Positions 1-30,561 of a stretch of 64,000 nucleotides of DNA are shown one piece after another; the first letter of the stretch is position 1; each line of letters opens with the position of its first letter. Source of the stretch: Gemmatimonadales bacterium. Its GTDB lineage: Bacteria; Gemmatimonadota; Gemmatimonadetes; Gemmatimonadales; GWC2-71-9. The position numbers were made by a program, and so were the translations under genes. The notes beneath the pieces are model-generated. The model was not told where the DNA came from. It saw only the letters and a list, made by a program, of their open reading frames with translations, and did not search any database. Location of the stretch: positions 527,127 to 591,126 of the forward strand of contig OZ252244.1 of the NCBI GenBank assembly GCA_965249575.1, in the 5' to 3' direction.

Positions 1-2252
1 ATTGCGAACAGTCGCTCGTTGAACGCGGTTTGCGCGATTGGACGCGGCGTTCGCTCCCCCTCAAGGAGCAGGGCCAGGATGTCGGCGTTCCGGCCTTCGA
101 CGTTTCCTTCACGAAGGGCCAGCCATTTCCCGTCGGGGGACCATTCGGTCTGCCAGAGGTCGTGCTCCCGCTGAAGCATCAATCGGGGTGGACCGCTCCC
201 GTCCGCCGGCAGCGAGAACAGACTCTGCAGTGCACCAGTCCGGCTGGAGGAGAACGTGATACGCATTCCGTCGGGGGTCCATGTGGGCATTCGGCTGCCG
301 GTTCCCTCGAGGGTGCGCAGCGACAGCGTGCGCTGGTCCATGTCATACACCCAGATGTCTCCCTGAATCCCCACGGCCAGTCGATCTCCGCTGGGGGAGA
401 ACTCCGGGTCTAGAAACGATCGCCTCCCGGCCTCGACAGTCGCTTCAGCGCCGTGGCGATCGACCAGCACCAGCGTCGTGCCCGTCGCCGCGCCTCCAGC
501 CATGTACGCCAGCGAGCCGTTTCGGGATAGCGCAAGTTCCATGGGCCCCCCAGCACCGTTGCTGACGCTCTCCAAGAGTGGAATGGCTTGGCCGGTCACG
601 GCGAGGTTGCTGAGATCGAACGGCACGGCCACAACCGAGCCGTCCGACCGAACATAGAGGAGGTGTCCGGTGTCGATATAGTGTGGATTCGTCCCCACCT
701 CCGGGAGGTGGGCCACTCGTCCCGACGTTAGCGAGACGACCGCAAGATGTGCGTCCGTGAGGCTTCCGGACCAAGCAGTGAAGACCACGGCGTTACCGCC
801 TGGTAGGATCTCCGGCCACCTGTGACGAGTTTCTCCTTGGGCGGTGTCCGGCACCGTGATCGCTTGAGGTATTCCCCCAGCAGCCGAAACCCGCATGAGA
901 CCCCCTCGGCTCCCGGCACTCCGAGCGAACACAATGACGTCGTCCGGTCCCCAGCTTGCACCGTTGCCGGACCACTCCGAAATAACCAACGACGGTCCGC
1001 CAGCGGAGGCCACTTTTCTCAGTTGTCCGTTGGCCCCAAATCCCAGCCATTGCCCATCTGGCGAGAAGAACGGTTGGGAGGCACCCTCGGTGCCGGGAAT
1101 CGGTCGGGCTTCGAGTTCGTCGATGCCGCGAACGTACAATTGTGGACCATTCTCACCTTGGGCGAGGTACACGAGACGCGAGCCATCGGGAGCGAGGGCG
1201 ATGTCCACCCCATTCGGGTTCAGGAATTCCCGGCCCGCAGGCGGTATCACGGCGAAGCGTGCCGGCCCGGGCGAGGTCACGGGAGCCGGGCGTAGCCAGC
1301 CCCAGAGGGCAACGGTTGCCAGCACCGCGGCGAGCCCCAAGGCTGCAACGGAAACCCGCTTCCACGGACCCGACGGCATAGCCACTCCTGCCACTGCCTG
1401 CGTCGTCGGCAGCGTGAACGCCGGATTCGCCAGTGCCTCGGCAAACTGCGTGGTACGCTGGAACCGATCGGCCGGGAGCTTCTCCAGCGCCTTCGCGGTC
1501 GCGGCCGCCACGTTGGGCGGCACCGACTTCCGCAACTCCGTCACCGGCCGCGCCTCGTCCGTCACGATCTTCATGATGATCGCCTGCGCCGACGCCCCCG
1601 TGTGCGGCGGCTCGCCGGTCAGCATCTCGTACAGCACGCAGCCCAACGAGTAGACGTCCGAGCGGTGGGTGAGGTCTTTCTCGGCGGTCGCCTGTTCGGG
1701 AGACATGTAGTGCGGCGTGCCGAGGGAGAGTCCGGTCTCGGTCATGCGCCCGCCGGCGGCCGCGCTCACCGCCAAGGCAATCCCGAAGTCGGCCACCATG
1801 GGACGCTCATCGTGGAGCAAGATGTTCTCGGGTTTGATGTCGCGATGGATCACGTTGTGGCGGTGCGCGTAGTCCAGGGCATCTGCGACTTCGGTCGTGA
1901 TCTTCACCGCCTCCTCGATGCCCAGCTGGGTCTCGCGATTCAGCTTGTCCCGCAGCGATTCGCCCTCAATGAAGGGCATGACGTAATAAAGGAAGGAGTC
2001 GGCCTGGCCGGAATCAAACAGCGCGAGGATGTGGGGATGCTGCAGGTTGGCGGTGACCTTGATCTCCTGCAGGAAGCGGTCGGCACCGAGGACGGCGGCG
2101 AGTTCGGGACGCAGCACTTTGACCGCCACCTTGCGATGGTGCTTGAGGTCCTCGGCGAGGTAGACCGTGGCCATCCCACCCGCACCGAGCTCACGCTCGA
2201 TGCGGTAGCGGTCAGCGAGGGCGGCGGTGAGGCGGGTGAGTTGGTCCGTCAC
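1..2252 (-). CDS. Ser/Thr protein kinase fused to TolB/WD40-like beta-propeller repeats (kinase a; 3' end lies beyond the window edge)
   Basis: The minus frame is open from the window edge up to GTG at 2252. It is absent from the ORF track because there is no stop inside the window. My translation reads VTDQLTRLTAALADRYRIERELGAGGMATVYLAEDLKHHRKVAVKVLRPE..ALDYAHRHNVIHRDIKPENI..DFGIA..GTPHYMSPEQ. A hydrophobic stretch follows, then repeated propeller motifs (ALAPDGSRLVYLAQ, FFSPDGQWLGF, EFSPSGDRLAV, TWTPDGMRITF, EWSPDGKWLAL). Confidence 0.9.
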   Translation of the reverse strand, partial: MTDQLTRLTAALADRYRIERELGAGGMATVYLAEDLKHHRKVAVKVLRPELAAVLGADRFLQEIKVTANLQHPHILALFDSGQADSFLYYVMPFIEGESLRDKLNRETQLGIEEAVKITTEVADALDYAHRHNVIHRDIKPENILLHDERPMVADFGIALAVSAAAGGRMTETGLSLGTPHYMSPEQATAEKDLTHRSDVYSLGCVLYEMLTGEPPHTGASAQAIIMKIVTDEARPVTELRKSVPPNVAAATAKALEKLPADRFQRTTQFAEALANPAFTLPTTQAVAGVAMPSGPWKRVSVAALGLAAVLATVALWGWLRPAPVTSPGPARFAVIPPAGREFLNPNGVDIALAPDGSRLVYLAQGENGPQLYVRGIDELEARPIPGTEGASQPFFSPDGQWLGFGANGQLRKVASAGGPSLVISEWSGNGASWGPDDVIVFARSAGSRGGLMRVSAAGGIPQAITVPDTAQGETRHRWPEILPGGNAVVFTAWSGSLTDAHLAVVSLTSGRVAHLPEVGTNPHYIDTGHLLYVRSDGSVVAVPFDLSNLAVTGQAIPLLESVSNGAGGPMELALSRNGSLAYMAGGAATGTTLVLVDRHGAEATVEAGRRSFLDPEFSPSGDRLAVGIQGDIWVYDMDQRTLSLRTLEGTGSRMPTWTPDGMRITFSSSRTGALQSLFSLPADGSGPPRLMLQREHDLWQTEWSPDGKWLALREGNVEGRNADILALLLEGERTPRPIAQTAFNERLFA

Positions 2253-2913
2253 GGGGTTCCTGGTTCCCCCATCCTCCGCCGCACTTCCTCGAACCAGTTC
2301 ACGACGTACGTCAACTGCCTGCGCCCACCAGCGTCCTGTCTTCTCGTTCTCATCAGCAAGCCCCCGCCCTCAGGTGCTCGGGGGAACAAACTGCTTGGCG
2401 AGAACGAGGCTGCTATTATCGCACGAATCAAGGCGAATCTTCTTGACCGCTTCGTAGGCGGGATCGGTGTACCAACCTAGAGCAGCCTCTGCTGACTTGA
2501 ACCTCAACACCACGTAAACGCTGCGCTTCTCGCCTTCAAGGGGTTGGGCATCGTACTCGGCGGCAAGGATCTCCGCTCCGTGCTTCTGCAATAGCGGTAC
2601 CACCCCAGGCACGTAGCCTTCATACACCTTGGGGTCAACGATGTCATAACTGGCGATGATGTAGGCGGTCATAGCATGCTCCTTTTGTCGAACACATTGA
2701 TTCCATGAGGCCAGAGCGTCCACCCGACGCAGGCTGGCAGAACGTTCTCGAGGGGCGGCCAGTTAGAGTCGCAGCACTCTTGACGGCCACCTTCCGCTTG
2801 TGCTTCAAGTCCTCGGCGAGGTAGACGGTGGCCATTCCGCCAGCACCGAGCTCGCGCTCGATGCGATAGCGGTCGGCCAGGGCAGACGTGAGACGGGTGA
2901 GGAGATCAGACAG
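2253..2913 (-). pseudogene. Remnant of a tandem kinase gene (kinase b): only the N-terminal ~46 codons and C-terminal ~38 codons survive, with the interior replaced by a DUF1330 gene
   Basis: Minus strand 2775-2913 reads LSDLLTRLTSALADRYRIERELGAGGMATVYLAEDLKHKRKVAVK. This is colinear with the starts of the kinases at 5582 and 11418, but has CTG where they have GTG, and the homology stops at ~2775. Minus strand 2253-~2369 reads GGLLMRTRRQDAGGRRQLTYVVNWFEEVRRRMGEPGTP*, the tail type of propeller kinases. Its TGA overlaps the GTG start of kinase a (GTGA). Confidence 0.75.
2370..2672 (-). CDS. DUF1330 family protein
   Basis: MTAYIIASYDIVDPKVYEGYVPGVVPLLQKHGAEILAAEYDAQPLEGEKRSVYVVLRFKSAEAALGWYTDPAYEAVKKIR.. 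The ATG at 2672 is preceded by AAAGGAG. The track ORF start at 2723 is probably too far upstream. Confidence 0.8.
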   Translation of the reverse strand: MTAYIIASYDIVDPKVYEGYVPGVVPLLQKHGAEILAAEYDAQPLEGEKRSVYVVLRFKSAEAALGWYTDPAYEAVKKIRLDSCDNSSLVLAKQFVPPST

Positions 2914-2930
2914 GCACTAGCTCAGGGCAC

Positions 2931-5582
2931 CTAGTTCTCGCCCGCCACGAGCTGCTGAAATCGTGGATCATCGCGTAGCGGATCCCAGACGGGATCGATT
3001 CTGAGCATCGGCACGGAAGTGTTTGAGGGGACCGCCAACAAACTTTCGAGTCGGTCAATGGCAGCATCGTACTCGCCGACCATGGCGTAGATACGCGCCA
3101 AGTCCTCCACTCGCCAGGCACCGCGCCACGCTTCTTTGCTCATCGGAAGTAACTGAATGGCCAGCTCGCCTTCGCGGACCGCATCGTCCTTGCGACCGAG
3201 ACCGGCATAGGCGATGCCGAGAGCGGAGTGCAACCGCTCGTCATCGGGACGCTCTTTAATCTCGGACTCTAGAATGCTGCGCGTCGAATCGTAATAGGCT
3301 CGCTCACGCTGCGGGTGCCCCATGAGTCCATAGATCTTGGCATGGAGTTGAGATTTGAGCACGTAGAACAATCCGTCTTCGAAAACGTCTGCCGCACTGG
3401 AAGCCAGCTTGTCCAGCGCCTCCTCATGGTCACCGTCCAACACATCGGTCAGCACCGACACGTACGTGACCCACTGATGTTCTCGGAGGCCAGAGCGCTC
3501 GGCCTCCTCCAGTACTGCGCGAGCCCTCTCCGTATTGCCTTCCAAACGGAGGTTCAAAAAATGCACCTTATCCGCGTACGGGCCGGTCGAATCCGGAACC
3601 AAGGAAATAGCTCGTTCAAATTGGCGGACTGCCCCCACAGCGTCGCGCAAAAGCGCGAACGTTTGCGAAAGGTTAAGAGCCATGTTCGCAGAACGCGGGT
3701 CGAGCTCTGCGGCTCTGACGAAATGTGGCAGTGCGTCAAGCATGTTCCCCTGCCGTCGTTGGACGGACCCGATCCCGGCCCAAAGCTCTGCGTTGTTCGG
3801 CTCGCTTGCTTGGGCGATGGCGAATTCGGCTAGAGCACGATCATACTCCAGATAACCCCAGTAGTGGTAGAATCCCAAGGCTCGATGGGCTGCGGCAGAT
3901 CGGGATCAAGCCGCAAGGCCTCGTCCACCGCTTGCTTGGCCATCGGCCGACGCTGTTGGGTTCGGTCATAGAAGAACCACCACATTCCCGAATGAGCCCA
4001 AGAGAGTTTCGCGTAGGCCACCGCGAACTCCGGGTCCAACTCGACGGCCTTCTGGTACATTTGGATGGCAATCTGCCAGTCCTGTTGTTCAACGCTTCGT
4101 CCGGAGTAATCATTTCCGCGCAAGAAGTAGTCGTACGCCTCCTGGTTGTCGGTGGGCTGCGCGGCCAGGCGTCGGCGTTCGGGCTCGAGCAGCGTGACGT
4201 CCAGCTCCTGTGCGACCTGCTCGGCGATGTCCGCCTGAACGCGGAAGATGTCCCCGGCTACCAGGGCGGCGGTGTATCGATCCGTCCAGAGATGGGCGTC
4301 GTCGGAGACGCGAATGAGCTGGGGTGTCACCCGGACCTGACCCGAGCCATCCGGTGATCGGTCAGTGCGTATCGTACCCTCCAGCACGTACTCAACGCTC
4401 AGTTCTTCCCCGATCTGCTGGAGCGTCTTGTCCGAGCCCTTGTATTGCGTCGCGCTCTGCCGTGAGATGACTCGCAATCCGCTGATCTCAGCGATCCGGC
4501 TGGTGACTTCCTCGCTGATGCCGTCAGCGAAGTAGTCGTCCTCTGGCGTGCCGAGATTCTCGAATGGTAAGACAACCACCCTCGGAACGTCGGCCGCCGC
4601 TGTGGTTCCGCGTTGGCCGGAGTTACCGATGAACCACGCCGCGGCCACGATGAGAATGACCCCGGCAGCTCCGAAAGCAGGAACGCGGAAGCGTCGCATC
4701 GATTTCGTCGGGGACGCCGGAACGGATTGAGTGTCCGTGGGCGTCATCCCCACGCTCGGAGTCGCCAGCGCCTCGAGCTGTGGCGACAACTCGTCCGCAC
4801 TCTGCCAGCGGTCGGCCGGCTTCTTGGCTAGGCACTTCATCACCACGGCTTCCAACTCCGCCGAGACCTGGTCCCGGTGCCTGCTGACCGGCTCCACCTG
4901 CTCTGTGACATGAGCAGCCCGTATTGATTGCGGCGTCGTGCCCGTGAACGGTGTTCTCCCAGCGAGTAGCTCGTAGGCCATCGCACCCACCGCATAGATA
5001 TCTGCACGGTGGTCGATGTGCGGATCCGCCGTGGCCTGCTCTGGGGCCATGTAGGCCGGCGTGCCGAGGGCGACGCCCGCGGCCGGTGGCTTCGCTGACC
5101 GCCTTGGCTACGCCAAAGTCGGTCACCATGGCGTGACGCCCCGCAAGCATGACGTTGTCAGGCTTGATGTCCCGATGCACCACGCCCTGCGAGTGGGCGA
5201 ACGCCAAGGCATCCACCACTTCGCGGACGATCCGCACCGTTTCAGTGATGGGTAATTCCCTCTCGTGCTGCAACCGCTCCCGGAGGGTATCACCTTTGAT
5301 GTAGGGCATGACGTAATACAGGAACCCGTCGGCCTCCCCGGAGTCGTGTAGCGGTAGGATATGCGGATGCGTCAGGTTGGCCGCAATCTTGATCTCGCGG
5401 AGGAATCGCTCGGGGCCGAGCGCCGCCGCCAGCTCCGGCCGTAGTACCTTGACAGCAACCTTGCGATCGTGCTTGAGGTCGTGGGCGAGATAAACTGTGG
5501 CCATCCCACCAGCGCCAAGCTCCCGCTGAATGCGGTAGCGGTCGGCTAATGCTGTTGTGAGACGGTCGAGGAGGTCCGACAC
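2931..5582 (-). pseudogene. Ser/Thr kinase - TM - VLPFENLG module - TPR protein (kinase c), broken by two frame changes
   Basis: Track ORFs 4623-5582, 3830-5050 and 2931-3878 are colinear pieces of one protein built like the intact gene at 9001-11418. The start is GTG at 5582 (MSDLLDRLTTALADRYRIQRELGAGGMATVY..HRDIKPDNVML..DFGVAKA). Frame change 1 lies at ~5063-5085 in a CGCGGGCG run, after which GTPAYMAPEQ..VVVLPFENLGTPEDDYFADG..TPR follows. Frame change 2 lies at ~3885-3895: the sequence is CAGCCCAT, whereas CAGGCCCAT would read ..DLPQAHRALGFYHYWGY. The gene ends DPRFQQLVAGEN*. Confidence 0.8.
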
Positions 5583-5862
5583 CGCACCACGCTTGTCGGT
5601 GACCTGACTACGATACGGCGGAGGGGATCAGGCGGCCAGGGTGGGATGCGGTTTCATCCCTGCGCCACGAGTCCGGCCGTGGCACCACTCTCCACTCGCC
5701 AATCCTCGGGCGCCGGCTCAGCCGAACGGAGCCCGGCCTGAACCCCCACTCCGCGCAGGAACCCGCTACGGCCGGCGCGACCTCGATTTCACCCTCTCCC
5801 TGCCGGCACCCATCATGACCCATGCGTTGCGCTGCCGGGCAGAGGAGAACCAGATTGTGCAT

Positions 5863-6010
5863 ATGCCAGCACCGCATCGATCAGCACGGTCGGGGATGTG
5901 CTCGCGTTGCCGGAGGCCGGCCTGCGTCACGAGTGGGATGGCGAGCACGTCGTGACGCTAGCGCCGCGCGCCGATCGTCAACGCGTGGTTGGTCGTCTGT
6001 GGCCGCATGG
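5863..6010 (+). pseudogene. 5' remnant of a Uma2-family endonuclease gene (paralog of 11607-12146)
   Basis: Nucleotide-level colinearity with 11655-11800. ATGCCAGCACCGCA.. is shared, then after a frame slip the sequence reads SISTVGDVLALPEAGLRHEWDGEHVVTLAPRADRQRVVGRLW, matching TIEELLALPEDGLRHELLDGKHVVTPAPSVDHQRVVGRLL. Homology ends at ~6005, where the cupin gene begins. Confidence 0.7.
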
Positions 6011-6019
6011 GGGGGGTGA

Positions 6020-6457
6020 ATGACTGATCGGATTCCTGCGGTTGTCCAGCCCGGTGACCAGCGAACAACGTGGCGTGGCGCTGGCGACGAATACCGCGTC
6101 CTCGCATCAGGCGATGACACCGCCGGGGATTATTTCGTGATGGAGGGCATCGTGCCTCCAGGTGGTGGCCCACCGCCGCACATTCAGACCCGAGAAGAAG
6201 AGGCGTTCTACGTGCTGGAGGGTGAGGTTGTCTTTCGGGCTGCCGGCGAGCGCATCCTCGGCCGCCCGGGCACCTACCTCAACATTCCACGCGGCGTTGC
6301 GCATCACTTCAAGAACGAATCGGCCACGACCGCGCGGCTCCTCATCTTCTTTGCGCCAGCGGGCATTGAGCCCATGATGGAGAGGATGGCGGCTGACCCA
6401 GACAACTACATTGGAATCGGGAAGGAATACGGCGTCGAGTTTGTCGATCGTGCCTAG
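6020..6457 (+). CDS. Cupin domain protein
   Basis: 145 aa. Contains ..GDYFVMEGIVPPGGGPPPHIQTREEEAFYVLEGEVVFRAAGE..YLNIPRGVAHHFKN.., the two-motif cupin signature. The ATG is preceded by a G8 run. Confidence 0.8.
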   Translation: MTDRIPAVVQPGDQRTTWRGAGDEYRVLASGDDTAGDYFVMEGIVPPGGGPPPHIQTREEEAFYVLEGEVVFRAAGERILGRPGTYLNIPRGVAHHFKNESATTARLLIFFAPAGIEPMMERMAADPDNYIGIGKEYGVEFVDRA

Positions 6458-6582: not shown

Positions 6583-8909
6583 TTACCCTCCGACCTCCTC
6601 CGGCAGGTTCATCCGCCGCAGCATCTCTCCGAATCGCGGATCAGCCTTGAGCGCCGCCGAGAACGGAGCAACGGCGAGATAGACCATGTCGTGGTCGCGC
6701 TGGTCATATGCGCGCTCGAGCCACTCGAATGCCCGATCGGTTTCTCCTGCCATGTCGAACATCACCACGACCAGCATCGGTTTGACGAACATCCTGGCAG
6801 CGCGCCTGCCGAGGATGTCCGCCGCAGCGAGCGCCGCATCTCGGTAGCTCCCCCCACCGTACCCCTGGTCGATTGCGCCCATCACCTCCGGGTCTCGCAA
6901 TAGCTCAAAGAACGTTCGGGCCTGCGCCATTGCTTCCTCGGCCAGGCCCTGCCTATTGAGGGCTCCCGCTAAAGCGTAGCGCGAGAGCGAGAGGTTCGGT
7001 GCCATGTCTATCGTCTGCCTTAGTTGCGTAGCGCCATCGTCAATCCGTCCGGCGAAGACCATCTGGATGCCGCTCAGGGCATGGATAAAGGGGTTGTACG
7101 GATCGATCTCGAGCGCATGCTGCACGTGCGGGGTCGCCTCCTCAGTCCGCCCGAGAGCCGTGAGAGAGTGTCCGAAGAGAACGCTCGTGAGCTGATCGTT
7201 CGAGTCGAGCTCGATTGACCGACGGAACGCCGCCTCGGCCGGCCCCCATTCCCAGTCGTACCATGCGCGACCCTGCGCCAGCTGGGACCAGCCCTCCACA
7301 AGCGTGCTGTCTAGCTCGACGGCCCGCTCGGCAGCAGCGATCAACGAGGGGCCGGCTTCGTGTGGCGGGGAGAGACCGATCACCAACCGTCCGCCCCAGA
7401 CCCGACCGATGCCAGCGTGGGCCGGGGCATAGCTGACATCGTGCTCGAGGGTCCGGTTGAAGTACTGCAACGCGATCCCAAGGTCTTGCGGTGTATTTCG
7501 ATCGGCGTGGAAAACGCCGCGCATGTACGCCTCGTACGCCCGGGGATCGATTTGCGGCACCGTTGTGGGGCGCCCCTCTGCCTGCGGAAGCGCCAGCTGC
7601 ATCTCACCGACGATCGCCTCCGCGACATCGCGATACAGAACGAATACGTTCTGCAGATCGGCGTCGTAGGATCTGGACCAGATGTATTCCTCGGTCTCGC
7701 CGTCGAACAAGCGTACCTGGATCCCCACACTGTCGCCCACGCGAAAGGCCGATCCCTCCACGAGAGCGTCCACGCCGAGCTCGCTGGCGATCTCGCGACC
7801 CGGTTTGTCGGTGGTCGAGTACCGCATCACCGATGGGCGGGCGATTACGGTGAGCCCCGCTTGGGTGAGTTGTGAGATCACCGCCTCGTGCATTCCCTGC
7901 ACGAGATACTCCTGGTCAGGATCGTTCATGAGATTACCGAAGGGCAATACCGCCAACCGGTTGATCGCAGGATCGCCGCCCTGGGTGTAGCCCCACAAAC
8001 CCGCCACCACCAACAGGACGGCCACTCCAGCAACCGCGGGCCGGCGCCACCTTCTCGGTCCCACCCGCGCCACGACCGTCCCCGACGTCAACACGTCGGC
8101 AAGGGTGCGCGCTGACGGAAACCGATCGGCCGGGCTCTTGGCCAGCGCCCGCTCCACCGCCCGCCCCACGAACACCGGGATCGTAGGATCACGCGCGCGA
8201 AGCCCCGGCACCGTATCCACCGCGTGTTTCGCTAGCAGCGCCTGGGCCGTCGTCCCCTCGAACGGTGCGTGGCCCGCCACCATTTCGTACACGACGCAGC
8301 CCAGGGCATAGACGTCGCTCCGCGCGTCGACGTCCTCCGATCCCACAGCCTGCTCCGGACTCATGTAGGCTGGCGTACCGAGCGCCAATCCGGTCCCGGT
8401 CAAGCGCTCGCCGCCCGCGGCTTGGACGGCGCGCGCGATCCGAAATCCGCCACGATCGCCTGATCGTCCGCGAGCAGAATGTTCTCCGGCTTGACGTCTC
8501 GATGGACCACGCCCCGCTCGTGCGCGTAACTCAAGGCCGACGCTATGTGATCGGTGATGCGTATCCCGTCTTCCAGCGTGAGCTTTCCCTCCCGGTCCAG
8601 CCGCTCCCGCAGCGACTCCCCTTCGATATACGGCATGACGTAATAGAGGAATCCGTCCGCGTCGCCGGAGTCGTGAAGTGTCAGTATGTGGGGATGTGTC
8701 AACTGCGCCGCGATCTCGATCTCGCGAACGAACCGCTCGGGGCCGAGCGCGGCTGCCAACTCCGGCCGCAATACCTTCACAGCCACCATGCGATGATGCT
8801 TGAGATCCTCGGCGAGATACACGGTCGCCATGCCCCCCGCGCCGAGCTCCCGCTCGATGCGGTAGCGGTCGGCAAGGGCGGTGGTGAGCCGGGCGGGCTG
8901 ATCCGTCAC
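6583..8909 (-). pseudogene. Ser/Thr kinase - TM - LPFGNL module - TPR protein (kinase d), split by one frame change after the DFG motif
   Basis: Track ORFs 8400-8936 and 6583-8403 form one gene. ..IVADFG then (I)ARAVQAAGGERLTGTGLALGTPAYMSPEQ reads through if GGATC at ~8437-8441 were GGAATC. The likely start is GTG at 8909 (VTDQPARLTTALADRY), in the same context GGAGCAGGAACGCC-GTG-ACG-GA as kinase a. Confidence 0.8.
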
Positions 8910-9000
8910 GGCGTTCCTGCTCCCCCCGTGAGCCACCGTAACTCCTCGAAGCAGCTCACAACCCTAGTTCCATCCCTTCGCCTTCACCCGGCGAGGGTCA

Positions 9001-11418
9001 TTAGTCGAGCCGCACGTTCTTCATCAATACGTCAAGCCTTGGATCGGAGCGCAGACCGTCAAGCCTCGGATCTACTGCCATATAGCCGATCCACGGAGAG
9101 CGCTCTTCGAGCGCGCGGTCTAACCAACGAAACGCGTCATCCGTCTCACCGAGCGCCACGTAAATCACCGCCGTATGGTACGCGGATACATGCCGCGTTG
9201 CGGACTCCTGCTTTAATCGCTCGAGGATCTTCCTCGCCCGCTCCCCGTCGCCCGCCTTGGCATGGGCATGACCCAGCGAGGCTATGTAGAGTGGGTTGCC
9301 GCCCGATATGTCTATCGCTTGCTGCGCCTCCGAGATCGCCTCCTGATACCGCCCTGTTTGCTCCAATGCCCATCCCAGATGCCAGTGTCCCGGCGCGAAG
9401 CGGGCACCCAGCTCCAGCGCCTTCTCATATTCCTGGATCGCCACCTCGTGCCGGCCCGCGAAGTAGTGACGCAGGCCTACCCAGGTATTGATGATGGGCG
9501 AGAGCGGATCCAACTCGCGCGCCTTCTCCGCCTCCCTGAGCGCTTCCTCGTGCCGCCCCATGGCAGACAGGTAGCCGCCGTACCAGTGGTGCGCAGTCGG
9601 GTACCTCGGGTTGAGCTCGATGGCTCGCCTGTACTCTCGTTCCGCTGCCTCCCAATCATGATCGAATTCGAGGTGAATGTGCGCCAGGGAAGTGTGCGGC
9701 TCCGCGAGCGTCTCGTCGAACTCCAGAGCGTTCATGACTGCCTGTTTGGCCTTCGGGAAGGTCTCTTTCGGAGCCAGCACGCTGTACCAGCCTCGGAAAA
9801 TCCACGTGTCGGCAATTCCGACATGGGCTAAGGCATAACCGGGGTCCAGATCAACCGCCTGTTGAAAGTAGGTGAGCCCGATCTGAATCTCCTTTTCCGT
9901 TCGCTTGTTCCAGAAGTGCCGGCCTCTCAGGTAGAGCCTGTAGGCGTCTAGATTCTCAGTTGGTCTGGCAGTCACAGACCTGAGCTCGCCCCGGAGCAGC
10001 GTAACGCCCAGCCGGTCAATCACCTGGCTGGCAATGTCGGACTGCACCTCGAAGATGTCCTCGATCACACGCTCGTAGGATTCCGACCAGAGCTGTGTGC
10101 CGTCAGCGACGCGGATGAGCTCCGGGCTGATGCGCACTCGGCGGGAGCCGCTTCCGTCGCCACCCCAAAGGACGCGTCCGCCGAGGATATAACCGACGCC
10201 TAGCTCCTCGCCGATCTCGTGAATGCTCTTGTTGGTACCTGCATAGCCGAGCGCGCCTCTGCGCGAGATGACTGAGAGCCCGCTCACCGCACCCAGGCGA
10301 GTGGTAACCTCATCGGTCATGCCGGCAGCGAAGTACACATCCTCGGGAGGGCCCAGATTCTCGAACGGTAAGACGACGATCATCTTCGTTTCGACAACCG
10401 ACTCCTCTCGCGGTTGTCGGACGGCCGCTTCGGGCTCGGGTGTGGTTCGACTGAGCCACAGGCCATACCCCCCCATCCCCAGGATCAGGAGTCCAGCGAT
10501 TCCGGCAGCGAACCATCGTTTCCGGGAGGCCGCTGTCTCGTTAGCTGGCCTTCCCACCAGATTCTTGTCGAGCGTCCCGACCTCCAGCCGACGCTCTAAG
10601 GCGTCAACGAACTCTGAGGCCCTGTCAAATCTGTCTGTCGGAACCCTCGCGAGCGCCTGCTGCACCGCTGCCGCCACGTGGACCGGCACCGTCTCGCGGA
10701 GCTCGGTCAGAACCACCGGTCGTACCGTCAGAATCTTTGCAAGGATTGCTTGCGCAGACGCCCCCGTGTGCGGCGGCTCGCCCGCCAACATCTCGTATAA
10801 CACACAACCCAGCGAATAGATGTCCGAGCGACTCGTCAGGTCCTTCTCCGCCGTCGCCTGCTCGGGACTCATGTACTCCGGCGTCCCCAGCGAAAGCCCA
10901 GTCGCCGTCAATCGCATACCGCCGGCCTCGCTCACCGCGAGGGCGATGCCAAAGTCGGTGACCATCGCCTCACCCTCATGCAGCAGGATGTTCTCGGGTT
11001 TGATGTCGCGATGGATCACAGCCTGGCGATGGGCGTAGTCGAGCGCCGATGCAACCTGACCGGTTACGTGAACTGCGTCGTCAATGGAGAGTTGGCGTTC
11101 ATGACGAAGTCTGTGGCGCAGTGATTCGCCCTCGACCACCGGCATGACGTAGTAGAGGAAACCGTCGGCTTCCCCTGAGTCGAACAGCGGCAGAATATGC
11201 GGGTGCTGGAGGTTGGCGGTGACCTTGATCTCCTGTAGGAACCGGTCGGCACCCAGGACAGCCGCCAGTTCAGGCCGAAGCACTTTGACCGCCACCTTGC
11301 GGTCGTGCTTCAGGTCTTCGGCCAGATAGACCGTCGCCATCCCACCCGCGCCGAGCTCGCGCTCGATGCGGTAGCGGTCGGCTAATGCTGTTTTGAGACG
11401 GTCGAAGACGTCGGACAC
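9001..11418 (-). CDS. Ser/Thr protein kinase with TM segment, periplasmic VVLPFENLG module and C-terminal TPR repeats (kinase e, intact, 805 aa)
   Basis: GTG start. MSDVFDRLKTALADRYRIERELGAGGMATVYLAEDLKHDRKVAVK..VIHRDIKPENILL..DFGIALAVSEAGGMRLTATGLSLGTPEYMSPEQ; a TM segment WFAAGIAGLLILGMGGYGLWL; IVVLPFENLGPPEDVYFAAGMTDE; multiple TPR-like repeats (ALELNPRYPTAHHWYG.., KALELGARFAPGHWHLG..). Confidence 0.92.
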   Translation of the reverse strand: MSDVFDRLKTALADRYRIERELGAGGMATVYLAEDLKHDRKVAVKVLRPELAAVLGADRFLQEIKVTANLQHPHILPLFDSGEADGFLYYVMPVVEGESLRHRLRHERQLSIDDAVHVTGQVASALDYAHRQAVIHRDIKPENILLHEGEAMVTDFGIALAVSEAGGMRLTATGLSLGTPEYMSPEQATAEKDLTSRSDIYSLGCVLYEMLAGEPPHTGASAQAILAKILTVRPVVLTELRETVPVHVAAAVQQALARVPTDRFDRASEFVDALERRLEVGTLDKNLVGRPANETAASRKRWFAAGIAGLLILGMGGYGLWLSRTTPEPEAAVRQPREESVVETKMIVVLPFENLGPPEDVYFAAGMTDEVTTRLGAVSGLSVISRRGALGYAGTNKSIHEIGEELGVGYILGGRVLWGGDGSGSRRVRISPELIRVADGTQLWSESYERVIEDIFEVQSDIASQVIDRLGVTLLRGELRSVTARPTENLDAYRLYLRGRHFWNKRTEKEIQIGLTYFQQAVDLDPGYALAHVGIADTWIFRGWYSVLAPKETFPKAKQAVMNALEFDETLAEPHTSLAHIHLEFDHDWEAAEREYRRAIELNPRYPTAHHWYGGYLSAMGRHEEALREAEKARELDPLSPIINTWVGLRHYFAGRHEVAIQEYEKALELGARFAPGHWHLGWALEQTGRYQEAISEAQQAIDISGGNPLYIASLGHAHAKAGDGERARKILERLKQESATRHVSAYHTAVIYVALGETDDAFRWLDRALEERSPWIGYMAVDPRLDGLRSDPRLDVLMKNVRLD

Positions 11419-11606
11419 AGGGCCACACCGGTTTGTGACCCGATTAGGATACGGTGGAGGGGGTTAGGCGGCCAGGGTGATTGGTGGCTCGTCTGGATCG
11501 CCTCCCTCGGATAAACCCGCGACTCTCGGTCGCGAGCGGGGCCCGAGCGGGAATCCGCCACGCATGACGCTAGTCCGGTACGGCTATTTTCCTACACGCC
11601 ACAATC

Positions 11607-12146
11607 ATGTCCCATGCGTTGCGCCGGTCGGCCGAGGGGAACCAGATTATGGGTATGCCAGCACCGCAGACGATCAACACAATCGAGGAGCTGCTCGCGC
11701 TGCCGGAGGACGGCCTGCGTCACGAGCTGTTGGACGGCAAGCACGTCGTGACACCAGCGCCGTCCGTCGACCATCAGCGGGTGGTTGGACGGCTCTTAAT
11801 GATCCTGACGACGTCGATCGGCTCGGATCATTGTATCGAAGTGCTCTCGAGCCCAGCCGACGTGCACTTGACGCCACGGACCCTCGTTCAACCGGACGTG
11901 TTCATCGTCCGCCGCGACGACGAACGGCTGGCCAGGGAGTGGCGTGAGGTCGGGGTGCCGCTGGTAGCCGTCGAGGTCCTGTCACGCTCCACCGCCGCCC
12001 GGGATCGCGGGACGAAGCGGCGCCTCTATCTCGAGGCGGGCGTCGAGGAATACTGGATCGTCGATCTCGATGCGCGACTCATCGAGCGCTGGCGGCTCGG
12101 GGACGACGGGCCGGAGATCGTCGACGGCGAGATGGATGGGAACTGA
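11607..12146 (+). CDS. Uma2 family (DUF820) putative endonuclease; the C-terminus appears frame-shifted (see findings)
   Basis: ..TIEELLALPEDGLRHELLDGKHVVTPAPSVDHQRVVGRLL..PDVFIVRRDD..VPLVAVEVLSRSTAARDRGTKRRLYLEAGVEEYWIVD. Alternative starts are ATG at 11649 or 11655. The expected family C-terminus (ELSVGVSGFLEVPVLFERL*) is in the -1 frame at 12140-12199. Confidence 0.8.
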   Translation: MSHALRRSAEGNQIMGMPAPQTINTIEELLALPEDGLRHELLDGKHVVTPAPSVDHQRVVGRLLMILTTSIGSDHCIEVLSSPADVHLTPRTLVQPDVFIVRRDDERLAREWREVGVPLVAVEVLSRSTAARDRGTKRRLYLEAGVEEYWIVDLDARLIERWRLGDDGPEIVDGEMDGN

Positions 12147-15624: not shown

Positions 15625-18006
15625 ATGCGCCGCTTCGAGACGTTATCCGCGACCGTGGCTGTCATCGCCGCGCTATCAATCATCCCGTCGTCGTTGCCGG
15701 CACAGGGTCAGGACGCCGAGTACGGCCGCCTGATTCGGGAGTACACGTCGGACCCGCACTTCCTTCCGGCGTCGGTGGCACAGGTCCCGGAACATCCGTC
15801 CGTCCCGTCTCCCAAGGATCACTTCGGCACCATCGTCGGCGCTCCAGGGGTCATGCACGGCACCGGTGACTGGTATCATCGCTACTCCAAAAATCGAACA
15901 GAGTGGGAAGACGGATTCCCGCGATCCGGCCCCTACTGGGGGAAGTACGTCTACCACGACAACAATCGGGACGGACTACAGATCACGCAGGAGCTCACCA
16001 AGGCGGTGTACCGCGAGTACTTCCGCTGGCACCCCACAGTGATGCTCGACCTGCACGAGTCGGTGCCACTGCTCTACGTCTCTACTGGCACCGGCCCGTA
16101 CAACGAGAGCATCGACCCCATCACGATCGCTGAATGGCAGCTGCTCGCCAATCACGACGTCACGAGCGTAACGGCACTGGGTCTCCCTGGTGTCTGGACG
16201 TGGGGATTCTACGACGGGTGGTGGCCCGGTTATCTCCTGTGGATCGCGAACAATCACAACGGCATTGGCCGGTTCTACGAGACCTTTGGCAACGCGGGCG
16301 CCAATACATTCGTTCGTGATCTCTCCGAATCCCGTTACGCCGGAGACTCGGTGACGGCTCGCCGCTGGTACCGCCCCTGGCCGCCCACGCGCCGTCTCCG
16401 ATGGTCCGCCCGCGACAACGTGAACTACATGCAGGCGGGCGTCATCGCCTCGTTGGAGCTGGCGGCTACCAATGGAAGGACTCAACAGCGTCGAGCGGGG
16501 TCGAAGCGAAAAGCCGCACGCATTCCTGGTGCCGGCACTCGCTCGGCAGCGCGATCCGAAGCGGACCGCCTATCTGGTCAATCAGCTCCGGCGACACGGG
16601 ATCGAGGTGCATCGCCGCACCGACGGCGACTCCGCCGGCGCGTTCGTCGTGCTGCTGGACCAGCCGTACCGCAACTTCGCCGTCAGCCTCCTCACCAAGC
16701 AGAACTTCCCCGAGGACGCGCCTCATACACCGTACGACGACGTCGCGTGGACTCTGGGATACATGTACGGGGTGAAGGTGAAACCGATCGACGACGTCGG
16801 GGTGTTCGGGTGGGCGGTCGAGCCGGTACAGGACACCGTATCGGTCTCCGCCTCAGTGCGGGGGGGTGGACCGGTTCAGGTGCTTCGATACACAGCCCAG
16901 TCGGAGGTTCTCCCGGCGCTCTTCGAGCTTCAGGCGCAGTCGCCGGAATCGAAGGCGTGGGTCGCCGAAGGGGCGTTTGCGGCCGTGGATGACAGTTTCC
17001 CCGCCGGCTCGGTGATCCTGGAGGACGTTGACGCCGGGACGGCCGAGTCCCTGGCGCGCCGCTTCGCGTTGCCGCTCCGTGCGGTACGGTCCGTGCCGCG
17101 TGTCGATCGGCACGAGCTCGACTTGCCGAGGATCGCGATCTATCACACGTGGGTCAACACGCAGGACGAGGGCTGGGTCCGATTCACCTTCGAGCAGCTG
17201 AGGATCCCGTACACCTCGATTCACAAGGATCACGTGCGGGCGGGAGATCTGAGAAGCCGTTTCGACGTCATCGTAGTCCCCAGCACCGGTGGCGCATCGC
17301 TCGAGACGCTCGTTCACGGTCGCGACAAGCGTTGGAGCCCCCTGCCCTACACGCAGACCGAAGAATTCCCCTCCCACGGTACGCCATCTTCGACCGACGA
17401 CCTGACCGGCGGGCCCGGTTTCGAGGGTATGGCCCAGTTTCAGCGGTTCGTGGAAGAGGGCGGCACCTTGATCACCCTGCACCGCGCGACGCGATTGGCA
17501 GCGGAGGGCGGGCTCGCCCGCGCGCTCACGCCGCTGCCAGCCGGTTCGCTGTTCCACCCGGGATCGGTCGTTAGGGCAGCGGCGCGCCGCCCCAATCATC
17601 CCATTATGTACGGATACCCGGACACGCTGCATGTCTTCCGCGGGAACGGACCGCTGTATCGGGTCGCGCGACGGGATAGGGGCATGATGGTGTTGCAGTA
17701 CGGAACCGAGGCGTTGCCCGACGAGCGGGCCGATGCCAGGCCGGAGGAGATGTTCGGTATCGATCCGGTCGACGTCGCGGTCTCACCCGCCGATACCGGC
17801 ACGACCGACAAGCCCCCCCCTACGTGCTCTCGGGAATGGTCAAGAACTCCAAGGAGATCGTCGGGCAGGGTGCCATCTTCGACGTCCCGGTAGGCAACGG
17901 CCGGGTGATCGCGTTCACCTTCAATCCCCTCCACCGGTTTCTCAATCACCATGAGTTCCCGATGGTCTGGAACGCAATCATGAACTGGAACGATGGGAGG
18001 AGGTGA
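15625..18006 (+). pseudogene. M14 carboxypeptidase-like large secreted protein, in three frames and lacking an HxxE zinc motif
   Basis: Track ORFs 15625-16992, 16472-17893 and 17824-18006 are colinear. Signal MRRFETLSATVAVIAALSII; ..YWGKYVYHDNNRDG..WHPTVMLDLHESVPLLYVSTGTGPYN..; a frame change at ~16465-16475; ..SEKPHAFLVPA..LVNQLRRHGIEVH..; a frame change in the C8 run at 17813-17820; ..YVLSGMVKNSKEIVGQGAIFDVPVGNGRVIAFTFNPLHRFLNHHEF... No HxxE occurs upstream of DNNRD. Confidence 0.65.
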
Positions 18007-24904: not shown

Positions 24905-26320
24905 TCAGCTCACTTTGTTCGGCGTTGGTGCGCCCTCCGGTCCGTTGTCCCAGTCCTGCGCGCTCGAGACGTTGGGCACGCCCCACTGGTGACCGTTCCA
25001 CCCCTCGAAGCCGTCTAATCGAAAAGCCCAGAAGCCCGAGTCGAGATCGGTCATCACAATCAACCCGTCGGCATTACGCACGTCGATCCCCCAGCCGCCC
25101 TCGTACACGCTGTTACCTCGACCGTGAGCATAGGTCTCCTGCCAACCAGCAACGCCGATGCCGTGCCGATAGGGTGCCGGCCGGGTGGAATAGAACCCAA
25201 TCGAATAGGGATTCGAGGGATCCATCCAGTTGAGGACGTGGAACCCGTCGGTCTGTCCGGCAATGAATACGTAGGGCCAGCGCACCTCGGAGTAGTGTGG
25301 CGTGCCTTCGGGACTCGCGTTCCAGGCCCCGATGGGACGTGAGACGGCTCGTACTTCTCCGTCGTATGCGGGCTTCAAGTCGACGATCCGGATGGGTGCG
25401 TACCAATCCTCGAGATGCGACATGACGATGGCGTACCGGCCGTCTGGCGTCGGCGTGAACGTGTGATGCCCTGACATGCCGGCGATGTTCGTGGCCGACA
25501 CCAGGAGCTCCGGGTGCTCGGGATCGGTGATGTCAAAGACGTGGGCGCCGCCCGATCCCGCGCCGTAGAATTTGTCCTGCCTCGTGGCGGGATCGTAACC
25601 CACATAAAAGTCGTGCCATGCTGGCCGGGTCGTGTACGTGACCTCATTGAGGTTGGGAATCACGACCTTCCCGACCACGATCTCCGGATGACCCGCCACG
25701 ATCCGGTCGACGTCGTAGATGTAAGCCTCTGGCGAGACCGTCTGAGTCACGACGAGCGCCGCTCCGCTCGAATGCTTGTACGCGAACGTCTCGTGGAAAC
25801 CGCCCGGGTGCTCGGGGACACGGATCCGGGCGACCTCCCTGATGGTCGAGGTGTCCGGGAGCCCCGTGACGTCCCAGACGATCGCGCCGAGATCCGTGTT
25901 GGGACCACCCTGCCGGAATTGGAACCCGTTGAAGAAGTAATACCGGCCGTTGGTCTTTACGTACGCTGGCGCCAGCGAGCCCGGCCCACGGTGCAGCGCG
26001 GCGTCCTCGATGCGCCACGAGTAGATGAGCTTGGGGTTGGACGGATCCTTGATGCTCAGGATGTCGAACCCGATGGTGGGATCCGTGGCTCCGACGTGAT
26101 TAGACCGATCGATGTACACGTACGGTCGCGACAGCTCCTGTTCCAGCTCGATATCCGAAACGTTGTACGGACCAGAGGCATCGTGCGGCGGGAGGTGCGA
26201 CATTAGGCGAACGTTGGCGCTTCGCGCTTCGCCCGGTAGCGGGTTTGGACGGTACTCCTGAGGCCCCGCCGCCGTCGCGACGACCAGCAGTGTTGCAGCG
26301 AGAAATGGAAAGCTCGGCAT
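24905..26320 (-). CDS. Secreted beta-propeller protein, LVIVD-repeat-like, paralog A (most divergent)
   Basis: The likely start is ATG at 26320 (MPSFPFLAATLLVVATAAGPQ); the track start at 26356 is longer. Alignable end to end with 28990-30393, 30562-31914 and 37649-39013: PGGFHETFAYKHSSG, WHDFYVGYDPATRQDKFYG, GHHTFTPTPDGRYA, SEVRWPYVFIAG, DVRNADGLIVMTD, FEGWNGHQWGVPNVSSAQDWDNGPEGAP. Confidence 0.8.
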   Translation of the reverse strand: MPSFPFLAATLLVVATAAGPQEYRPNPLPGEARSANVRLMSHLPPHDASGPYNVSDIELEQELSRPYVYIDRSNHVGATDPTIGFDILSIKDPSNPKLIYSWRIEDAALHRGPGSLAPAYVKTNGRYYFFNGFQFRQGGPNTDLGAIVWDVTGLPDTSTIREVARIRVPEHPGGFHETFAYKHSSGAALVVTQTVSPEAYIYDVDRIVAGHPEIVVGKVVIPNLNEVTYTTRPAWHDFYVGYDPATRQDKFYGAGSGGAHVFDITDPEHPELLVSATNIAGMSGHHTFTPTPDGRYAIVMSHLEDWYAPIRIVDLKPAYDGEVRAVSRPIGAWNASPEGTPHYSEVRWPYVFIAGQTDGFHVLNWMDPSNPYSIGFYSTRPAPYRHGIGVAGWQETYAHGRGNSVYEGGWGIDVRNADGLIVMTDLDSGFWAFRLDGFEGWNGHQWGVPNVSSAQDWDNGPEGAPTPNKVS

Positions 26321-26546
26321 GTCTTCGCCCTCGACGATGGGGATGATGCTTAACATGCGGGCCGCTGCGCGGGATCGCCAACCCCCTCTGGCCTTCCGCC
26401 CCGGATCCGAGATACGGACTGCGACCGCGAGATTTGCGATCTCACCCCGGAGCGTTCATAATGAATGGAATTTCACACCTGACGGCACGCTCGTCTCGGG
26501 CGTCCACTCCTGGATGGCCGCGGGCCGAACGGACAGTGATGGCGGC

Positions 26547-28910: not shown

Positions 28911-28989
28911 CGACGCATTGCGCATTGGGCGATGACGAATGACAATGAAAAATGAATCTCCCCCTTCTCGGTCTTCAGAGGATATATCA

Positions 28990-30393
28990 ATGATTCGCAA
29001 GAACACCCCCGCTCCCGTGCGCCCAGCCGTGTTCGTGTTGCTCCTGCTCGTCGGTGTCGCCGGCGTGGCCCAGGCACAGTACCCTCCCGGCGAGCAGGGG
29101 AGCCGCAACGTGCGCATCATGTCCCATCTACCCCTCGGCCGTGCGTTCAGCGTATCGGACATCGAGATGGAACAGGAACTCTCGCGCCCATACGTGTACG
29201 TCGCGCGAATGTTGGTACACGGCACCGAGATCATCAGCATCAAGGATCCGGAGAACGCCGAGGTGATTTACTCGTGGCGGATCGACAATCCCGAGCTACA
29301 CCAAGGGAACGGCGGGATGGACAACAAGTACTTCAAGCTCAAGGGCCGATATTACGACGTTCAGTCGTTTCAGTTCGGCCGGAGTGGTCCGGACGCCGAC
29401 GTTGGGGCGGTCGTGCTAGACGTCACGAGCTTGCCCGACGTATCGAAGGTCAAGGAAGTCGGTCGTATCCGGGCGCCGGATCGACCAGGGGGCTTTCACA
29501 ACATCTTCGCGTACAAGCACTCCGACGGCAGGGTGCTGCTGTTCACGACAACCACCGGACCCTCGGTGAACGTCTACGACATGGAGCGGTTCCTCGCCGG
29601 GGATTCGCGACAGGGCTACGTGGGCAGCATCCCGACGCCTGACAACGCGACGGCCGGGATGCCGGAGTTTCTCTCACGCGCACTCCCAGGGTACCACGAC
29701 GTCTACGTAGGCTACGACCCCGCCACTCGCCAGGACAAGTTCTACGGTGGTGGCGCGGGTGGTTACTACATTTACGACGTGAGCCGGGTTGAGGCACCGA
29801 CACTCGTGACCTCAGTAACTGGAATGGCTGGGGTACCGTTCGGGCACACGTTCACGCCCACGCCCGATGGCCGGTATGCCGTCCTCGAGACGGAGTATCA
29901 GTACGCACCGTTGCGGATCGTGGACCTGAAACCGGGCCTGGATGGTGAGGTCAGAACAGTCTCACGACCTATCGGTGCCTGGACCGCGCGCTGGCAGGGG
30001 CTTCCGCACAATCACGAGGTGCGTTGGCCCTATGTGTTCGTCTCCCACTATGAGGATGGCCTGCACATCTTCAACATGACGGATCCGACGAACCCGTATA
30101 CCGTTGGTTACTACGACTCCTACGACGGGCCCCACCAGCGGGGGTACGGCGGAGCCAATGACCCGGAAAGTAGCACGGGAGTCACCAGCGGAGCGTTTGG
30201 CGTGGATGTTCGCAACGCGGACGGGCTCATCGTACTGAGCGACTTCAGGACCGGCTTCTGGGCGTTCAAGATGGACGGCTTCGACGGCTGGAACGGCCAC
30301 CAATGGGGCATGCCGAACGTGTCATCGGTCCAGGACTGGGATAACGGACCGGAGGGCGCCCCAACGGCCGCGCGCGTGAGCGCGCGCGAGTGA
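28990..30393 (+). CDS. Secreted beta-propeller protein, paralog B
   Basis: The likely start is ATG at 28990 (MIRKNTPAPVRPAVFVLLLLVGVAGVAQA/QYPPGEQGS); the track start is 28939. It lies 79 nt downstream of the DUF5916 gene on the same strand. Confidence 0.85.
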   Translation: MIRKNTPAPVRPAVFVLLLLVGVAGVAQAQYPPGEQGSRNVRIMSHLPLGRAFSVSDIEMEQELSRPYVYVARMLVHGTEIISIKDPENAEVIYSWRIDNPELHQGNGGMDNKYFKLKGRYYDVQSFQFGRSGPDADVGAVVLDVTSLPDVSKVKEVGRIRAPDRPGGFHNIFAYKHSDGRVLLFTTTTGPSVNVYDMERFLAGDSRQGYVGSIPTPDNATAGMPEFLSRALPGYHDVYVGYDPATRQDKFYGGGAGGYYIYDVSRVEAPTLVTSVTGMAGVPFGHTFTPTPDGRYAVLETEYQYAPLRIVDLKPGLDGEVRTVSRPIGAWTARWQGLPHNHEVRWPYVFVSHYEDGLHIFNMTDPTNPYTVGYYDSYDGPHQRGYGGANDPESSTGVTSGAFGVDVRNADGLIVLSDFRTGFWAFKMDGFDGWNGHQWGMPNVSSVQDWDNGPEGAPTAARVSARE

Positions 30394-30423
30394 GGAGGGC
30401 CCCTCCCCACTCGACCCGGCCTA

Positions 30424-30497
30424 GTGAGCAGTAAGCGGTGACCCGTCCCCACCCGTATGCGGTTGGGACGGGGATGGGTAGCCTCCTTAATGCTCAC
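30424..30497. terminator. Composite palindrome between convergent paralogs B and C (candidate bidirectional terminator / REP-like element)
   Basis: The outer arms are GTGAGCAGTAAG (30424-30435) and CTTAATGCTCAC (30486-30497), matching at 11 of 12 positions. The inner stem is CCCGTCCCCACC (30442-30453) against GGTTGGGACGGGG (30461-30473). No U-tract. Confidence 0.5.
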
Positions 30498-30561
30498 TTG
30501 GGAGAGGGGAAGGAGGGTGAACGCCTCACTCGGGGTGATGGGAGGCGATGGGGCCCGCCGC

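Follow-up and report, generated by a model that had tools for sequence, protein, structure and literature searches.

How does an intact gene come to occupy the place of the interior of another gene? This question is raised by a locus in a 64,000-nucleotide (nt) stretch of DNA from a Gemmatimonadales bacterium (GenBank assembly GCA_965249575.1, contig OZ252244.1, positions 527,127 to 591,126), called the window below, in which a DUF1330 gene is found between a head and a tail fragment of a kinase gene, within an array of further kinase genes (a, c, d and e). The lost kinase to which both fragments are assigned is designated kinase b. The explanation favoured here, with a probability of roughly 55%, is that a promoterless integron-type cassette inserted into kinase b and that a later deletion removed the attC site of the cassette together with the kinase interior. 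The original prediction described the locus as a clean gene-replacement scar. That interpretation is broadly right but incomplete, since the cassette-like unit likely supplies a mechanism for at least the left junction. An intact gene does lie between kinase ends, but the scar is not featureless: a mobile module with its own 5' flank is found at the left junction, and the kinase remnant is decaying. What is new here is that the DUF1330 gene evidently travels as a discrete module.

The kinase head of 46 codons, the kinase tail and the DUF1330 gene are all present between kinases c and a in the same orientation, as had been claimed, and these five units all lie on the minus strand. The head (2913-2776) translates as LSDLLTRLTSALADRYRIERELGAGGMATVYLAEDLKHKRKVAVK and remains in frame for 46 codons. 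It begins with CTG (2913-2911) where the paralogues have a GTG start, with no alternative in-frame start upstream. Near 2779, a +1 insertion, which is not in a homopolymer and is followed by further small indels, was detected in the alignment to kinase a (GTCAAGAGTGCTG versus GTCAAAGTGCTG). With its start codon lost and a frameshift gained, the kinase remnant is already in decay. Kinase homology had been said to end abruptly at ..KVAVK (about 2775). Instead, it continues past the insertion to about 2749 by local alignment (codons VLRPELAAVLG..) and, by eye, to TTCTGCCAG at 2742. The head keeps the N-terminal kinase subdomains I-II (GxGxxG, VAVK) as GAGGMATVYLAEDLKHKRKVAVK; its Pfam Pkinase match (E 0.0068) is below the cut-off because the piece is short, with 33 profile positions left.

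When the region was aligned to the kinases, the similarity of the head proved real, although the breakpoints had to be moved. Kinase a was the best match, with a local alignment score of 182 versus 142 for kinase e and about 120 for kinases c and d. DNA identity to the start of kinase a is 83-84% over the first 155-158 nt (by blastn 83.9% over 155 nt, 2749-2901 versus 2087-2240), whereas the other paralogues reach 77-80%. Over the 46 in-frame codons, the two sequences differ at 28 sites, distributed 6/2/20 over codon positions 1/2/3, and the ratio of nonsynonymous to synonymous substitution rates (dN/dS) is 0.107. The head therefore appears to have diverged mostly as part of a working gene that died recently, and not as a neutral scrap of a partial duplication. 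The same similarity takes the form of direct repeats, 2119-2251/2780-2912 (83%) and 2094-2118/2754-2778 (84%), which together span 158 nt (2094-2251 versus 2754-2912). Such a repeat had been reported as absent; by its sequence it is simply the paralogy of the head fragment and kinase a. Apart from it, the repeat search of the window returned short chance repeats and no target-site duplication. The accompanying claim that no transposase is visible holds, as no transposase open reading frame (ORF) was found at the site or among the window ORFs tested.

The tail directly precedes kinase a, and the stop of the one (TGA, 2251-2249) and the start of the other (GTG, 2252-2250) overlap as GTGA. The frame ending at 2249 reads ..GGGLLMRTRRQDAGGRRQLTYVVNWFEEVRRRMGEPGTP before the stop, with the propeller-kinase C-terminus NWFEEVRRRMG. 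The C-terminus is ..RFLMIR....(I/V)VVVNWFEELRRRMGN in homologues of kinase a and ..RFLLLKKAATGDRPIVVALNWFEEVRRLTGAQGGER / ..VVALNWFEEVRRLTGAQGGER in kinase a itself, and the family C-terminal motif ..VV.NWFEEL+.+vG is present in the tail. A profile hidden Markov model of this C-terminus, made from the last 70 residues of 92 propeller-kinase homologues, gave a single match in the six-frame translation of the 64-kb window, at 2377-2267 with 18.3 bits. The isolated tail peptide scored 30.2 bits, and the portion from LTYVV onward scored 20.3 bits alone; the upstream part scored 2.9 bits alone, which was equalled by 9 of 2000 shuffles. In a tblastn search of the 36-residue tail against all fetched loci, only two propeller-kinase C-termini matched, both from the kinase array of another Gemmatimonadota locus (L028), with E values of 2-3e-4. 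The similarity of the tail to the kinases is thus formally significant. Its length is a different matter: the tail is real, but the proposed 39 or so codons (2253 to about 2369) may be only 22, reaching to 2317, since 2318-2369 is similar as well to what follows DUF1330 on its 3' side in other genomes.

A second tail remnant is found upstream of kinase d, where 8962-8910 is homologous to 2305-2253 with 74% identity over 53 nt. It starts 39 nt past the stop of kinase e and has lost the family consensus (1.4 bits versus 20.3 for the tail upstream of a). A propeller-kinase tail has thus apparently been left before a downstream kinase twice in this array, and tail retention would be recurrent, probably because the ribosome-binding region of the next kinase and its coupled start lie in the last 50 or so nt. 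The retained tails before a and d suggest that the final codons of an upstream gene are protected from its loss by overlapping stop/start coupling. The tail before a is better preserved and was therefore presumably coding until recently, which fits the state of the head.

The two fragments could also have had separate origins, the tail being an old leader of kinase a that predates the duplication of a and d, and the head a partial duplicate of the 5' end of a beside a resident DUF1330 gene. The leaders of a and d are indeed homologous from -53 to -1 (74%), and head and kinase a are 84% identical, an exception among the kinase paralogues of the window, which are mutually 69-78% identical in DNA (blastn). 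An extension of the leader homology upstream of -53 was considered and rejected as not significant (p about 0.05-0.09), which also suits separate origins. However, a dead duplicate should diverge neutrally, whereas the head has a dN/dS of 0.11 with 20 of its 28 differences at third positions. Similarly, the tail before a fits the coding consensus (20-30 bits) while the tail before d is decayed (1.4 bits), which points to coding until recently. More events would also be required than if one gene were involved, and separate origins are considered improbable. The best reading is that both pieces come from the two ends of a single propeller-kinase gene, once functional and a tandem paralogue of a; head and tail alike support it. 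A recent large tandem duplication (c-b-a versus e-d) was excluded, as c/e and a/d are only about 70% identical; by these identities the kinase paralogues of the window appear to be old.

The extent of the loss in kinase b follows from kinase a. The window holds only the first 750 of its 887 residues because the gene runs past the window start; these 750 are free of stops and match Pfam Pkinase (9e-52) and PD40 (1.6e-14), and the full length is that of P0121, which is 100% identical. The closest homologue of kinase a outside the source is 69% identical. With 887 amino acids as the reference, about 795-810 codons are absent between 2742 and 2317-2360. A large interior loss had been correctly recognized, but its size is about 2.4 kb and not about 2 kb. 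The catalytic core and the propeller are both absent, and kinase b is therefore a pseudogene remnant and not a member gene.

The DUF1330 gene itself is complete, as originally described, with 100 codons and an AAAGGAG in front. It matches PF07045 with 74.9 bits (cut-off 23, E 6.6e-21) over residues 2-88 of 100, and also matches the structure PDB 2FIU (E 1.2e-10). A total of 269 homologues were found at E <= 1e-10, and the closest non-self relatives, with 89-92% amino acid identity, occur in other contexts. The dN/dS values against eight relatives are 0.03-0.28; the gene is intact and, judged by these values, under purifying selection. Its GC content is 56%, versus 64% for the window, and is 54-57% in every other locus whatever the GC content of the host. 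No sigma-70-like promoter or terminator-like site was found in 2100-3100, and read-through from the direction of kinase c, with use of the gene's own AAAGGAG, presumably accounts for its expression. DUF1330 has no known function, hence no physiological consequence is reported.

Close DUF1330 relatives were compared in about 30 loci from metagenome-assembled genomes (MAGs) of Acidobacteriota and Gemmatimonadales and from soil and sediment metagenomes. The neighbours differ in every locus and include squalene synthase/YbjQ, GNAT/DUF6265/RidA, esterase/DinB, cytochrome b, an ion channel and others. No kinase fragment was found beside DUF1330 in the other sampled loci by tblastn. In blastn comparisons, DNA homology starts about 66 nt (58-74) upstream of the ATG in every informative pair, over at least eight unrelated contexts; for the window copy against independent loci the distance is 58-66 nt. 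On the other side, homology between contexts ends 0-93 nt past the DUF1330 stop. DNA identity of this unit between Gemmatimonadota and Acidobacteriota is 83-91%. The DUF1330 gene thus evidently moves as a discrete module of about 400-460 nt.

The ends of the module resemble those of an integron cassette. In four contexts, the 5' end matches GTTRRRY at 6-7 of 7 positions (GTTAGGT in L030, GTTGGGC in L002, GTTCGGC in L033, GCTAGGC in L010), and each of these cores is followed by CGCATCGGG. About 27 nt past the stop lies GATGCGGCCTAAC; it contains an RYYYAAC, read as GCCTAAC in L002, L031/32 and L033, and repeats the 5' end in inverted form, so that the module ends form 13-nt inverted repeats, GTTAGGCCGCATC ... 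GATGCGGCCTAAC. Although the neighbours on either side of the unit differ between L013 and L031/32, these loci have in common 92-93 nt of 3' flank ending in ..AG/TT (here and below, a slash marks a breakpoint). Similarly, the homology common to L002 and L010 stops directly after ..CTAAC. In L033, a 65-nt attC-like site (1441-1505, GCCTAAC...GTTCGGC) precedes the DUF1330 unit and an 88-nt one (1894-1981, GCCTAAC...GTTAGAC) follows it. As bottom-strand DNA, the upstream site has a folding energy of -27.2 kcal/mol (z -4.1), which none of 200 shuffles equalled, and in its fold the R box is paired, the spacer unpaired and the L stem bulged. A 144-nt attC-like hairpin ending in GTTRRRY follows DUF1330 in L002. 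Rfam searches of the window and the loci returned no matching family, the plasmid collection no match to the module, and the motif GATGCGGCCTAAC is not enriched in the window (15 matches versus 22 expected). A naive scan for RYYYAAC...GTTRRRY hairpins was discarded, as it gave far too many chance matches.

Several of these loci carry further features. L033 is a metagenome contig of 2.4 kb that looks like a cassette array, with no integrase on the contig. In L002, a repeat of about 100 nt with an internal hairpin (CCCGGCAAAGG...CTTTGCCGGG) at 2890-2990 and 5335-5440 flanks a DUF1330-GNAT-DUF6265-RidA block, and GCGGCCTAAC occurs after both DUF1330 and RidA. In L013, a Gemmatimonadales MAG, an IS256/Mutator-family transposase (7156-8337) lies 1.7 kb upstream of the DUF1330 unit. 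A recombinase in L029 is far below the cut-off for the integron integrase IntI (27-32 bits versus 265-435). L002 was also considered as a complete integron and excluded, as its divergent 322-amino-acid ORF is no recombinase.

At the left junction in the window, kinase homology ends at 2749-2742 and module homology begins at about 2741, with zero unexplained bases between them. The junction reads AGCCTGCGTCGGGTGG in the window, compared with AGCCGCGTCGGTTGA in L032 and AGGCCGCATCGGGTGA in L010, and lies within about 4 nt of the canonical 5' end of the module. The right side is less sharply defined. A possible G/TT is present at 2315 (CAG/TTGACG), and module homology by blastn ends at 2356, 14 nt past the stop. 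Two readings of 2318-2359 compete. This segment may be the decayed 5' half of an L010-type 3' flank after a 7-nt deletion: GATGAGAAC is collinear with GATGCGAAC, with a common AA that otherwise occurs only in L010, and GGACGCTGGTGGGCGC aligns with GGA-GCTGGTGGGCGC, the exact 12-mer GCTGGTGGGCGC being common to L010. The local-alignment score of this match was equalled by 3 of 1000 shuffles and the whole-flank score by 9-11 of 2000. With comparable support, the segment may instead hold 14 more kinase-tail codons, LLMRTRRQDAGGRR versus FLMIRTEQAAGEAE; the tblastn match to the L028 kinase tails covers residues 1-35 of the tail. The 12-mer (window 2320-2331, minus strand) begins with the E. coli Chi octamer GCTGGTGG, which is probably a coincidence in GC-rich DNA.

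From the conserved 5' flank of the module and a left junction at the module end, a cassette-type insertion followed by a deletion would explain the locus without an unexplained one-step swap. Kinase b would once have stood between c and a, translationally coupled to a. A small, promoterless, horizontally mobile DUF1330 unit would first have inserted about 60 codons into kinase b, the left junction being the normal 5' end of the unit. In a second step, one deletion may have taken most or all of attC and about 2.4 kb of kinase b, sparing the last 22-36 codons of the gene, by integrase-mediated recombination with a second GWT/GTT site, by hairpin-associated slippage or by illegitimate recombination. 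The tail would have survived because the ribosome-binding region lay in it, as did the stop/start overlap with kinase a. Afterwards, the GTG of the head would have become CTG and the frameshift would have arisen, while the DUF1330 gene was kept under purifying selection; the marks of both are seen in the sequences described above. Published work lends plausibility, though no proof, to such a route. Cassettes are inserted by integron integrases at 5'-GWT-3' sites of the genome, off-site excision removes genome segments, and slippage readily eliminates attC hairpins (Loot et al., bioRxiv 10.1101/2022.09.11.507474). Clusters of attC sites or cassettes lacking integron integrases (CALIN) are also common (Cury et al., 2016, PMC4889954), and cassette and attC features as described there were seen in the loci with DUF1330 relatives.

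A number of observations weigh against a cassette insertion followed by a deletion. A G/TT crossover is not demonstrable at the left junction because the 5' end in the window reads CCAGCC (..GCCAGCC..) and not TTAGGC, and the homologous point in kinase a is no GWT site (..CTGCAG/GAGATC.., about 3 nt before a GATCA motif). A functional attC is lacking in the window copy, which keeps no more than a decayed 5' half. The right junction can be placed only between 2315 and 2360, with a slight preference for about 2316; reading 2318-2359 as kinase tail adds about 10 bits, and the profile alignment extends to 2377. A cassette end at the G/TT of 2315 with a deleted attC apex was tried and rejected as no better than shuffles, 13-19% of which score as well. 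The 53-nt leader shared by kinases a and d means that the tail could predate the head. Among the relatives, the candidate hairpins of L002, L010, L031 and the downstream site of L033 fold no better than shuffles, and that of L013 reaches only z -2.6. No tyrosine recombinase or integron integrase was found among the 20 large window ORFs tested, no integron integrase beside L002 (its 322-amino-acid ORF has no Pfam, NCBIfam or PDB match) and none beside L013, which has only the IS256-type transposase. With no integrase at these places, the copies would be isolated cassettes, either CALIN or single attC sites lacking integron integrases (SALIN), rather than complete integrons.

The same observations bear on illegitimate recombination, in one or two microhomology-mediated steps, by which foreign or ectopic DNA with DUF1330 replaced the interior of b; the match at the left junction would then come from breakage at a hairpin base or from chance. 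The failure to find an integrase, a right junction that is not demonstrably at a core site and the CCAGCC in place of TTAGGC are all in keeping with it, as is a possible microhomology of AG between kinase (..CTGCAG) and module (..TAGGCC) where they meet on the left. In contrast, a random breakpoint is unlikely to fall about 4 nt from a boundary common to at least eight independent contexts, and the module has cassette hallmarks in L033 and L002. Illegitimate recombination is thus a serious but rather unlikely explanation. Campbell-type integration of a circle through the kinase head was excluded, as no leader copy is found upstream of the fragment.

A more ambitious form of the cassette hypothesis would attribute both junctions to integron-integrase activity outside an integron, with attC x attG insertion at about codon 60, excision of 2.4 kb by intramolecular attC x attG recombination at the GTT of codon -22 (2315-2313), and slippage loss of the attC apex. 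This is a doubtful proposal. If true, the locus would be a natural, fossilised Gemmatimonadota example of off-target, gene-disrupting and genome-deleting integron activity, which is so far known mainly from laboratory E. coli, and it would show the domestication of a cassette into a host operon.

Compared with known SALIN and CALIN, the favoured cassette insertion has several likenesses: one small ORF that lacks a promoter, has a short 5' flank (66-69 nt here) and has no integrase nearby, a GTTRRRY-like 5' core in several copies, and RYYYAAC with hairpin-forming 3' flanks in relatives. Insertion inside a chromosomal gene, with its disruption, is likewise shared with SALIN (attC x attG), and the SALIN/CALIN literature describes how off-site recombination deletes parts of the genome and how slippage removes attC. 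On the other hand, the window copy has no recognisable attC or demonstrable GWT target, no integron integrase was found among the window ORFs tested or in the relative loci examined, and the host belongs to the Gemmatimonadota, a phylum for which such events are undocumented in the cited SALIN/CALIN literature. About 2.4 kb of the target gene is also missing, and a simple insertion is therefore not enough.

Other systems are less close. Resistance cassettes are known to insert at secondary sites, as with aadB in RSF1010 derivatives. These too have become fixed outside integrons, with a promoter of the host driving their expression, but unlike the window case they keep the whole attC and delete no target DNA. 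The 13-nt terminal inverted repeats of the module recall mobile insertion cassettes and elements like miniature inverted-repeat transposable elements (MITEs). In contrast to these, there is no target-site duplication, the common 3' flank of L013 and L031 extends well past the inverted repeat up to G/TT, and a complete hairpin site is also present upstream in L033; these features appear to fit attC better than MITE-like ends. Ordinary pseudogene remnants in tandem kinase arrays provide a third comparison. Tandem arrays with both kinase + PD40 and kinase + TPR genes are also found in other Gemmatimonadota (L028), and the disrupted neighbours c and d and the second tail remnant before d resemble such remnants. 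In ordinary cases, however, the interior is simply deleted, whereas in kinase b it is replaced by an intact foreign gene.

Taken alone, a decayed kinase paralogue with a captured accessory gene is routine turnover in a phylum rich in tandem kinase arrays, and the locus is a well-preserved but fairly ordinary case of gene decay and gene capture. Both ends of kinase b survive, so that the target and the size of the loss are directly legible. The cassette-like DUF1330 unit, probably outside any integron, is a natural candidate for the recently described spread of cassettes into genomes.

Finally, the locus could be a chimeric join made during assembly of the repeat-rich kinase array of a MAG. The source is a single contig of 3.86 Mb that is known from one record only, several kinase paralogues of 70-84% similarity lie in the region, and single-base breaks at short homopolymers in kinases c and d resemble long-read errors. 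Neither junction, however, is inside repeated sequence, and misassembly is unlikely because the junctions are in unique sequence. Collapse of paralogues would yield a chimeric kinase and not a head joined to a cassette flank, the marks of decay (the CTG start and the non-homopolymer +1 insertion) are consistent with age, and the GTGA stop/start overlap with kinase a is preserved. An artefact is thus very improbable. The features of the locus are collected in Table 1.

Table 1. Coordinates of the kinase genes, kinase remnants and DUF1330 module in the window.
Feature	Position	Strand	Description
Kinase a	1..2252	-	Intact Ser/Thr kinase + PD40 beta-propeller; GTG start 2252-2250
Kinase-b tail	2249..2317	-	QLTYVVNWFEEVRRRMGEPGTP (2317-2252), then TGA at 2251-2249
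Ambiguous 52 nt	2318..2369	-	Possibly decayed 5' half of attC-like cassette 3' flank, or 14 further kinase-tail codons LLMRTRRQDAGGRR
DUF1330 gene	2370..2672	-	Intact, 100 codons + TGA, PF07045
DUF1330 5' flank	2673..2741	-	Homology to other loci; upstream end falls where other copies have the GTTRRRY-type core; includes AAAGGAG ribosome-binding site at 2685-2679
Kinase-b head	2742..2913	-	About 57 codon equivalents; alignments to kinases a, c, d, e
Kinase c	5582-2931	-	Kinase + TPR type, ORF list; 17-nt gap to kinase-b head
Kinase d	8909-6583	-	ORF list
Second tail remnant	8910..8962	-	VVSCFEELRWLTGGAGTP and stop, directly upstream of kinase d, GTGA overlap
Kinase e	11418-9001	-	Intact, 805 amino acids
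Further kinase	40713-43571	+	ORF list

The kinase array as a whole appears to be decaying more widely. By tblastn with kinase e, kinase c is disrupted twice by frame changes, near 5083 and near 3887. The first break is a deletion of about 17 nt in the activation loop (SEATGR/GVALGTP), where the L032 relative reads SEATGRDQITTAGVALGTP; the second is a 1-nt loss (..DLPQ/AHRALGFYHYW). Similarly, kinase d has a frame change near 8440 at DFG/IARAV, where one G is lost in a G run. The single-base breaks in kinases c and d could be real mutations or long-read homopolymer errors.

Elsewhere in the window, long ORFs of 450-810 amino acids at 15625-17893, 24905-26356, 28939-32166, 37649-39013 and 43568-45997 have no Pfam match at E <= 1e-5. 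An old duplicated block was also found (5025-5998 versus 10847-11794, 69-72% identity), which comprises a kinase 5' half, an intergenic region and the first 190 or so nt of a Uma2-family gene. One Uma2 copy is intact at 11607-12146 (plus strand), and the other, at about 5822-6020, is cut short next to a cupin-like ORF (6020-6457).

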